From: Escherichia phage LF82-1
Sequence record: PV648359
Reading direction: 5' to 3' (one strand)
DNA length: 64,000 bases
This document shows, piece by piece, positions 35,551 through 37,113 of this stretch (position 1 is the stretch's first letter; every line of letters starts with the position of its first letter). The notes below the pieces were generated by a model. The model was not told where the DNA came from, made no database searches, and saw only the letters and a program-made list of their open reading frames with translations. The position numbers and the translations under genes are program-made.

Positions 35551-36121
35551 AAAAGTTTCGGATTTGTTCCCAATTCAGAGAACGAAGATTATTACGAGAG
35601 TACTGAATTACTTCAATACCGGCTTGTTTAAGAATGTCTGCCCAATTTTCAGGAGATCGGTCATATAATTCTGCATATACAACCTTTTTAATACCTGACT
35701 GTGTAATAGCTTTAGTGCAATCAGGACACGGAGAAAGCGTAGTATATAACGTAGCACCTTCAATAGAATTACCTTTACGAGCTGCAAACAAAATTGCATT
35801 CAGTTCCGCATGGATTTCGTTATTAGCGGACCATGCACTATGAGCAGCCCGATGTTCTTTAGCCAAAACAAAATTATCCACCCGTCCAAATGCTGTAGTG
35901 CCTTCTTTATGCCCAGCAACGATGACCGGGCTTGGTTTATTCTTCAACCAACCGTTTTCGGATGCATGTTCACAACAGTTAACACCACCTGAAGGAGAGC
36001 CATTATAACCTGTAGAAATAATGCGTCCATCTTTTTCAATGACTGCGCCAACTTTCCATGAACAACATTTTGATTCTTGAGAAATCAAATAAGCAATTTG
36101 AAGATATGTGCTAGCTTTCAT
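35540..36121 (-). CDS. cd: dCMP deaminase
   Basis: 193 aa; zinc-binding HAE...PCPDC deaminase motifs. Confidence 0.9.
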   Translation of the reverse strand: MKASTYLQIAYLISQESKCCSWKVGAVIEKDGRIISTGYNGSPSGGVNCCEHASENGWLKNKPSPVIVAGHKEGTTAFGRVDNFVLAKEHRAAHSAWSANNEIHAELNAILFAARKGNSIEGATLYTTLSPCPDCTKAITQSGIKKVVYAELYDRSPENWADILKQAGIEVIQYSRNNLRSLNWEQIRNFCGE

Positions 36122-37113
36122 TATTGAACCTTATTAATATAAGTTAACAGCTCTTTAGTTTGTTCCCAACTGATGCACGCATCGGTAACGGAAACGCCAT
36201 AGGACATATTATCAGAAATTTTTTGATTTCCTTCATGTAGGAACGATTCTATCATAATTCCTTTGACCAAATCATTAGCTGCTAAATTTTTACCAATACC
36301 AATTTGATTGCTATAATGCCCATCAGCGTTTGCATGGCTACAGTCAACCATTACATAATGATTCAGACCTACTGCCCTTGCTTTGTTAGAAGCTTCTTGA
36401 ATATCAGAAGAATGATAGTTCGGGCCGTTGGTCCCGCCACGCAATACGATATGCGTATTCTGATTACCTTCAGCTTCAACAATGCCTACAGTACCATCGA
36501 CGTCCATACCCATATACCGATGAGGCCAGGCGGCACTATACATCGCGTCTGTAGCTACTTTAATAGAACCATTGGTTGCGTTCTTGAAGCCTACGCACAT
36601 CGGTAGACCTGAAGCAATTTCACGATGTGTCTGACTTTCAGTCGTACGGGCGCCAATAGCAACCCATGAGAAAATACCAGAAAGATACTTAATCGTGAAT
36701 GGGTCTAATACTTCAGTTGCTAATGGAAGTCCCATACGTAGAAGTTTACGACACAATGTTCGTGCAACTATAAGACCGTGGTTCATATCAAAACTTCCGT
36801 CAAGATATGGATCATTTACAAGACCTTTCCAACCTACGGTAGTTCGAGGCTTTTCAAAATAAACGCGCATCACTAACAGAACATTAGGAAGACGAGTTTG
36901 AAGTTCAGCCAGACGTTTGCCGTATTCAACCGCGGCAATAGGGTCATGAATTGAACAAGGACCTACAACAATAAGTTTGCGTGGGTCTTCACCGTTCATA
37001 ATCGAATTAACTTGTTCGCGATGAGAAGCCACTTGTGATGCGTAAGCTTCCGACAAAGGAATAATCTCAGCCAGTTCTTTTGGAGAAATAAGTTTTCCGA
37101 CGACAGGTAACAT
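36121..37113 (-). CDS. 3-deoxy-7-phosphoheptulonate (DAHP) synthase, class I AroG-like
   Basis: 330 aa; signature blocks VVGPCSIHDP, RVYFEKPRTTVGWKGLVNDP, IGARTTESQTHREIASGL align with E. coli AroG as recalled; N-terminus ~18 aa shorter than AroG. Confidence 0.85.
   Translation of the reverse strand: MLPVVGKLISPKELAEIIPLSEAYASQVASHREQVNSIMNGEDPRKLIVVGPCSIHDPIAAVEYGKRLAELQTRLPNVLLVMRVYFEKPRTTVGWKGLVNDPYLDGSFDMNHGLIVARTLCRKLLRMGLPLATEVLDPFTIKYLSGIFSWVAIGARTTESQTHREIASGLPMCVGFKNATNGSIKVATDAMYSAAWPHRYMGMDVDGTVGIVEAEGNQNTHIVLRGGTNGPNYHSSDIQEASNKARAVGLNHYVMVDCSHANADGHYSNQIGIGKNLAANDLVKGIMIESFLHEGNQKISDNMSYGVSVTDACISWEQTKELLTYINKVQ

Follow-up and report, generated by a model that had tools for sequence, protein, structure and literature searches.

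It is established E. coli physiology that DAHP synthase (DAHPS) controls flux through the shikimate pathway and that its genes aroF, aroG and aroH are repressed by TyrR and TrpR (PMC7144000, PMC9529685). The enzyme is the flux-controlling entry point for the synthesis of folate, quinones and siderophores as well as of aromatic amino acids. In the feedback-inhibited isoenzymes the side chains of Q151/Q152 and S180/S181 hold the main chain of the bound Phe or Tyr, and D155/D156 stabilises the region (PMC9529685). Feedback-resistant mutants of AroG carry D146N, P150L, M147I, A202T, S180F, L175D, L179A, F209A/S or V221A, with Q151 also implicated, and in AroF of C. glutamicum the substitutions Q159A and S188F, which correspond to AroG Q151 and S180, relieve inhibition at 50 uM Tyr (PMC9529685). 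The N-terminal residues have been assigned a role in DAHPS inhibition in general terms (PMC7144000). With respect to phages, the DAHP synthetase of Klebsiella Kanagawavirus KLB31 was named as an auxiliary metabolic gene in a 2025 paper, as a hypothesis only (PMC11845039), and our full-text literature searches found no biochemical, genetic or functional study of any phage DAHPS.

We analysed a stretch of 64,000 nucleotides from Escherichia phage LF82-1 (PV648359), hereafter the window. At positions 36121-37113, on the minus strand, it contains an open reading frame of 330 aa with an ATG start. Both class I signature blocks described in the original prediction are present, EKPRTTVGWKGL at residues 87-98 and IGARTTESQ at residues 153-161. 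The gene had been placed between cd and pseT, at a site where T4 has only small cd.x ORFs, and this was borne out: cd lies downstream, cd.2, cd.3 and cd.4 and then pseT lie upstream, and window positions 36123-37230 stand in place of T4 cd.1. The surrounding leftward pre-replicative block comprises ligase, cd, pseT, alc, denA, nrdAB, td and frd. The 64-kb window that encodes the DAHPS also contains genes for host shut-off, among them Alc and DenA. The features used in the following are listed here with their coordinates in the window.

35540..36121, minus strand: cd (dCMP deaminase), directly 3' of the DAHPS gene (dCMP_cyt_deam_1, E=3.5e-26; annotation; TAATG overlap).
36106..36124, minus strand: downstream repeat copy, ATAATGAAAGCTAGCACAT (sequence).
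36121..37113, minus strand: predicted DAHP synthase CDS, type I-alpha, AroF-like, 330 aa (ORF, PF00793, TIGR00034, 6agm match, structural model).
37119..37123, minus strand: Shine-Dalgarno-like AAGGA, 5 nt before the ATG at 37113 (sequence).
37122..37274, minus strand: 50-aa ORF beside the DAHPS gene, left over from a foreign gene of the cd.2 type, of which it represents the 3' half (co-occurrence, alignment).
37219..37237, minus strand: upstream repeat copy, ATAATGAGAGCTATCTCAT, at the cassette border (overlap of BLAST blocks, sequence).
37234..37470, minus strand: resident cd.2 homologue (DUF7320 / PHROG 1504), upstream neighbour of the cassette (family matches, annotation).
37499..37527, minus strand: promoter-like site of sigma-70/T4-early type, TTTACA, 17 nt, TG-n-TACTAT (consensus scan, T4 homology).
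38208..39107: pseT, upstream of the DAHPS gene, beyond the small ORFs of the cd.2/cd.3/cd.4 families.

The 330-aa product had been described as an AroG-like class I DAHP synthase. Profile searches revealed that PF00793 (DAHP_synth_1) covers residues 36-323 with 252 bits (E=5e-75, cut-off 25.5), and that the aroFGH equivalog TIGR00034 and the model NF009395 reach 427.7 bits (cut-off 173.2) and 455 bits (cut-off 343), respectively. The isoenzyme equivalog cut-offs were missed (AroG NF006723, 363 vs 568; AroH NF009396, 386 vs 463). The best PDB match is E. coli AroF (6agm, E=5e-105), followed by N. meningitidis DAH7PS and E. coli AroG, and sequence identity falls from AroF (51%) through AroG (47%) to AroH (43%). 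The family assignment was thus upheld, with top matches that are DAHP synthases and a complete set of catalytic residues, and the likeness to AroG in particular proved imprecise. An AlphaFold2 model built on 46 sequences had a mean pLDDT of 93 and a pTM of 0.92, and in Foldseek comparisons it matched the N. meningitidis and E. coli DAH7PS structures with a TM of 0.96 and an rmsd of 1.4 A. The model keeps the (beta/alpha)8 barrel, the N-terminal helices (11-17 and 22-39) and the strands of the beta6a/6b hairpin (198-203 and 209-214).

We checked 17 residues that bind metal, PEP or erythrose-4-phosphate (E4P), in AroG numbering C61, H268, E302, D326, R92, E96, K97, P98, R99, T100, G163, A164, R165, K186, R234, G236 and S267. 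The window protein and eight diverse members of the phage clade have all 17 without exception. The metal ligands are C53, H260, E289 and D311 (AroG Cys61, His268, Glu302 and Asp326), and they are invariant across the aligned phage clade; the PEP/E4P residues include R83, K88-P-R-T91, A155-R156, K177 and R225. A degenerate pseudo-enzyme and an activity of the KDO8P-synthase type were both ruled out by the conserved residues and the equivalog score. Judged by sequence and model, the ORF is a full-length, metal-dependent type I-alpha DAHP synthase, and we regard this identity, together with the predicted catalytic activity, as close to certain.

The implied novelty of the gene could not be sustained. 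A tblastn search located the protein in 212 phage records, 139 of them at an identity of at least 95%, under names such as AroG, aroF or DAHP synthetase. Positions 1-64000 of the LF82-2 record PV648360.1 are 100% identical to the window and the DAHPS is annotated there. The protein also belongs to PHROG 5045 (E=3.2e-182, with residues 1-330 aligned to profile positions 8-337 of 341), a family in the category 'moron, auxiliary metabolic gene and host takeover'. As an annotation and as a catalogued family the phage DAHPS is already known, and the remaining interest lies in its regulation and in the benefit to the phage.

Close relatives of the window phage, such as Shigella phage Shf125875, are classed in Mosigvirus, the genus of RB69. 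A Tequatrovirus with a vertically inherited DAHPS was ruled out, given this placement in Mosigvirus and a foreign cd.2 remnant beside the gene. At least five T4-like genera (Mosigvirus, Kanagawavirus, Marfavirus, Winklervirus and Bragavirus) have the DAHPS gene between pseT and cd, and dozens of records contain a protein 100% identical to that of the window. Among Mosigvirus-level records roughly nine of ten carry it; RB69 and T4 do not. Its GC and GC3 are similar to those of neighbouring phage genes. Among the five genera dN/dS ranged from 0.15 to 0.24, over synonymous divergence that is saturated. The gene is maintained under purifying selection. These data bear on the hypothesis that the DAHPS is a passenger without a role, spread by recombination between phages. 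The absence from RB69 and T4 and the recombination scars in the cassette would be expected of such a gene, but the low dN/dS, the active site that is fully intact across at least five genera and the presence in most Mosigvirus-level records speak against it, and we find a passenger hardly credible. Given its shared site in the five genera, the DAHPS has long belonged to this early region in the T4-like phages of Enterobacterales.

In an NJ tree the 25 phage-clade sequences were monophyletic and sister to all 98 others, which comprise 95 bacterial matches and E. coli AroG, AroF and AroH. The phage clade is about equally distant (50-55% identity) from many bacterial AroF-like enzymes. With this topology and these distances no bacterial donor can be named. 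A recent capture from E. coli was ruled out by the 43-51% identity to AroF/G/H and by the phage-like GC3.

The cassette bears traces of how the gene probably reached Mosigvirus. Compared with RB69, where cd directly follows cd.2, the window has an extra segment of 1113 bp that holds the DAHPS and the 50-aa ORF. An imperfect direct repeat of 19 nt (16/19 matches) flanks the segment; it shows as a 19-bp overlap of the BLAST blocks against RB69, which is without the DAHPS. In each repeat copy a stop and a start codon overlap as TAATG, together with initial codons resembling those of cd. The 50-aa ORF occurred in 139 records, the same number as the DAHPS at 95% identity or above, and it is an additional feature of the Mosigvirus copy. 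It matched PHROG 1504 (the cd.2 family) weakly, at profile positions 41-76. Alignment to the ORF upstream of the DAHPS gave z=10.1 for Kanagawavirus Entb_45 and z=7.8 for Klebsiella phage PWKp18, and alignment to the resident cd.2 gave z=2.3. By these alignments the small ORF is what remains of a foreign cd.2-type gene, from the part that encodes the C-terminal half. Mosigvirus therefore probably obtained its DAHPS by recombination with another T4-like phage; the remnant points to a Kanagawavirus- or Marfavirus-like source, and the 77% identity of the window DAHPS to the proteins of Entb_45 and PEi20 fits such a transfer.

Signals in the surrounding sequence suggest when the gene is used. The Shine-Dalgarno-like AAGGA precedes the start codon, and the stop codon TAA overlaps the ATG of cd (TAATG). 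The nearest promoter-like site, at 37499..37527, corresponds by homology to Pe133295, an early promoter annotated in T4 between cd.3 and cd.2, and is the only one that we propose; its support comes from this T4 homology, as the generic promoter scan yielded no enrichment over shuffles. In the 120 nt upstream of the DAHPS gene visual inspection revealed neither a MotA box (TGCTT) nor a late promoter (TATAAATA). The gene is likely expressed in the early or middle phase.

The original prediction further held that about 18 N-terminal residues are missing relative to AroG, in a region implicated in feedback inhibition. In our alignment the phage Leu2 corresponds to AroG Ile10, AroF Ile11 and AroH Thr9, which leaves 8 residues missing against AroG, 9 against AroF and 7 against AroH. 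The entire shortfall of 20 aa against AroG is made up of residues missing at both termini and in two internal loops. The arm that precedes the catalytic Cys measures 48-52 aa in the 25 phage-clade sequences vs 58-95 aa in the 98 others, and nothing in the phage protein corresponds to AroG residues 2-9. In the paper on structure 1KFL, N-terminal residues 6-10 of the partner subunit reportedly belong to the inhibitor pocket of AroG. The deletion had thus been overstated, and the suggestion of altered feedback control that was attached to it draws its support mainly from conserved substitutions within the pocket itself.

These substitutions are, in AroG numbering, P150I, Q151K, D155G, S180P, A202S and F209Y, and in the numbering of the phage protein the changed pocket includes I141, K142, G146, P171 and Y200. 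D146, L179 and V221 are kept. At eight pocket positions the motif PIKGPSYG was found in 23 of the 25 phage-clade sequences, the other two being near-variants, and in none of the 98 other sequences (0/98), which read PPQDS[S/A]FG or similar. We then compared the 25 phage-clade sequences with their closest bacterial homologues across 327 aligned positions. Six positions (AroG 150, 151, 155, 180, 209 and 223) were conserved to at least 90% within each group but with a different residue in each, and five of them (150, 151, 155, 180 and 209) belong to a list of 18 pocket residues drawn up before the enrichment test (hypergeometric P=1.6e-6). This concentration of clade-defining changes in the inhibitor pocket, at 5/6 positions in the aligned sequences, is the new observation of the present analysis.

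Because the phage enzyme has other residues where AroG and AroF hold the inhibitor, and lacks the N-terminal tip by which the pocket is closed, Tyr, Phe and Trp are predicted most likely not to inhibit the enzyme. Weighing sequence and analogy to characterised mutants, we consider this insensitivity probable. If the enzyme were instead an ordinary Tyr-sensitive one of the AroF type, the phage would just raise the dosage. AroF is indeed the nearest isoenzyme, P147 and G211 are of the AroF type, and D146, L179 and V221 are retained. However, both binders of the inhibitor backbone, Q151 and S180, are replaced, likewise P150, D155 and F209, the N-terminal tip is absent, and homologues are desensitised by mutations at the same sites. 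Retained Tyr sensitivity therefore appears improbable.

Changes of this kind occur outside the phage clade as well. The DAHPS of Aeromonas phage HJ05, an unrelated copy with 38% identity, has an intact active site and carries Q151H, S180P, P150A and D155P. In a set of 150 diverse type I-alpha DAHPS representatives, about half are likewise without Q151 and/or S180. In a profile search of a 50%-identity library the phage clade was not separated and merged with bacterial AroF-like clusters. Altered pockets are thus frequent throughout the family; they are neither special to phages nor a phage invention, and we lowered our estimate of their uniqueness for this reason.

Within the phage clade the pocket is more conserved than the rest of the protein, with a mean majority frequency of 0.91 vs 0.74 over the full sequence. 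Simple loss of the site would not be expected to leave such a pattern, and a new effector or a structural function is conceivable. We considered the hypothesis that the DAHPS is still allosteric, with a rewired pocket that senses another ligand and couples shikimate entry to phage metabolism. The near-invariance of the pocket, the retention of the N-terminal helices and of the beta6a/6b hairpin in the model, and the concentration of clade-defining changes in the pocket would all agree with this. As the pocket gains a Lys and a Tyr hydroxyl and loses an Asp, an anionic ligand is conceivable, for example chorismate, prephenate or an intermediate of a nucleotide pathway. Against this, the sequence reveals no ligand, pocket conservation may stem from packing at the tight-dimer interface, and the N-terminal lid residues are deleted. 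Overall we hold continued sensing of a different ligand to be rather unlikely. The broader proposal, that in the DAHPS lineage of T4-like phages the pocket was re-specified, either for a non-aromatic effector or so as to lock the enzyme active, and did not decay, is likewise rather unlikely. If true, it would give phages private control of shikimate entry and provide a ready-made feedback-resistant enzyme for biotechnology.

The best explanation of the data as a whole is that a phage-specific, AroF-derived lineage provides a competent, early-expressed DAHPS insensitive to Tyr, Phe and Trp that sustains shikimate flux, and we assign it a probability of approximately 0.6. Under this explanation the DAHPS gene would be transcribed together with the pre-replicative genes of nucleotide metabolism, and the conserved early promoter ahead of cd.2 would be its probable origin of transcription. 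The phage would block host transcription (alc, denA), such that host aroF, aroG and aroH would no longer be transcribed and the host enzymes would stay repressed or inhibited. The uninhibited phage enzyme would catalyse the reaction of PEP and E4P to DAHP and Pi, and so would keep both substrates entering the shikimate/chorismate pathway. Aromatic amino acids, and possibly chorismate-derived cofactors, would in this way be supplied for virion production. Host enzymes downstream keep their own feedback controls, and extra DAHP need not raise the aromatic amino acids for that reason. We see an even chance that the supply of aromatic amino acids is the selected benefit.

An active DAHPS might also benefit the phage by another route, through cofactors derived from chorismate or through a drain on PEP and E4P that perturbs host metabolism. 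Cofactor candidates are p-aminobenzoate/folate, which would serve the phage thymidylate synthase, DHFR and dCMP hydroxymethylase, as well as quinones and enterobactin. The location of the gene in an early block with cd, nrdAB, td and frd, and its overlap with cd, would be in line with such a role. In E. coli the branch-point enzymes after chorismate are feedback-regulated, which is a further point in favour. But which genes lie side by side in T4-type early regions says little about what they do, and no second shikimate or folate-synthesis gene was seen in the annotation of the window. We judge a benefit other than aromatic amino acids unlikely. If sustained shikimate flux by an insensitive enzyme is the correct explanation, the locus would represent a virus that overrides host metabolic control in enterobacteria, beyond the marine systems, and a natural feedback-resistant DAHPS of practical use.

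Comparison with known systems places the window DAHPS as follows. Among its phage relatives (Shf125875 gp195, O157 typing phage 3 aroF, Entb_45, PEi20, X20 and PM2) it occupies the same pseT-cd site, and nothing of substance differs. With E. coli AroF (Tyr-sensitive; PDB 6AGM/6AGL) it shares 51% identity over the full length, the fold, the metal, PEP and E4P residues, and P147 and G211 (AroG numbering). It differs from AroF in that nine N-terminal residues are absent, in that two loops and the C-terminus are shorter, and in that Tyr-binding residues are altered (Q152 to K, S181 to P, P151 to I, D156 to G and F210 to Y). E. coli AroG (Phe-sensitive; PDB 1KFL, 1QR7) is alike in catalytic residues and fold (47% identity, TM about 0.96), and the phage enzyme differs from it at the sites of the feedback-resistant mutants P150L, S180F and F209A/S. 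The engineered resistant enzymes (AroG P150L/S180F/D146N; C. glutamicum AroF E154N, P155L and P155I) are hit at the same pocket positions and, like the phage DAHPS, have an untouched active site. Unlike them, the phage enzyme is natural, combines several fixed substitutions with an N-terminal deletion, and keeps D146.

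The DAHPS cassette, an extra segment absent from RB69 that carries the phage type I-alpha DAHP synthase gene (DAHPS) and a 50-aa ORF, is flanked by an imperfect direct repeat. The features concerned are as follows.

Window 37219-37237 and 36106-36124, minus strand: imperfect direct repeat of 19 nt, identical at 16/19 positions, flanking the DAHPS cassette.
Window 37122-37274, minus strand: 50-aa ORF annotated as "hypothetical", a cd.2-family remnant.

The cassette between the repeats measures 1113 bp. Both copies contain a TAATG stop/start overlap together with cd-like first codons, and a single copy is present in RB69, which is without the cassette. 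The repeat pair resembles a scar left by recombination or by a deletion. The 50-aa ORF is the remnant of a cd.2-family gene, specifically of its C-terminal half. Its nearest relatives are the ORFs that precede DAHPS in Kanagawavirus Entb_45 and in Klebsiella phage PWKp18, a relationship which implies that the cassette was probably derived from another T4-like phage. The ORF was found in 139 records, the same number as contain DAHPS copies of at least 95% identity.

For the resident cd.2 upstream, mechanical ORF calling gave a 113-aa reading (window 37234-37575, minus strand, GTG at 37575) that runs into cd.3. In the GenBank annotation, as in the T4 and RB69 homologues, the start is the ATG at 37470, yielding 78 aa. 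A promoter-like site at 37499-37527 falls within the longer reading and therefore favours the 78-aa form.

Downstream of DAHPS, 31.1 directly adjoins the dCMP deaminase gene cd (junction 35538-35540), and no counterpart of T4 gene 31.2 (78 aa; T4 locus 2883-3119, between 31.1 and cd) was found at this junction in the window. The 31.2 indel is distinct from the DAHPS cassette. In the RB69 annotation cd encodes 170 aa (RB69 locus 3743-4252) and ends in ...ILKPSWY, whereas the window cd (35540-36121; 193 aa) continues ...ILKQAGIEVIQYSRNN... where the RB69 product stops; the discrepancy may stem from a frameshift in the RB69 record or from a differing C-terminus there. A further annotated gene lies elsewhere in the window:

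Window 43854-44495, minus strand: homing endonuclease gene between phage nrdA and nrdB.

The two best-scoring proteins of the representative search (a profile search of a 50%-identity protein library), P0121 (799 aa) and P0122 (730 aa), each contain two DAHP-synthase stretches per polypeptide, reflecting either tandem fusion or a gene-calling artefact. In many further matches of 600-770 aa the DAHPS domain is fused to another part. Aeromonas phage HJ05, a 79-kb non-T4-like phage, encodes an independent 387-aa DAHP synthase (HJ05 locus 3899-5062; 38% identity) whose sole annotation is "hypothetical". By sequence its active site is intact; it has a long, His/Lys-rich N-terminal extension, and its inhibitor pocket is changed (Q151H and S180P, AroG numbering).
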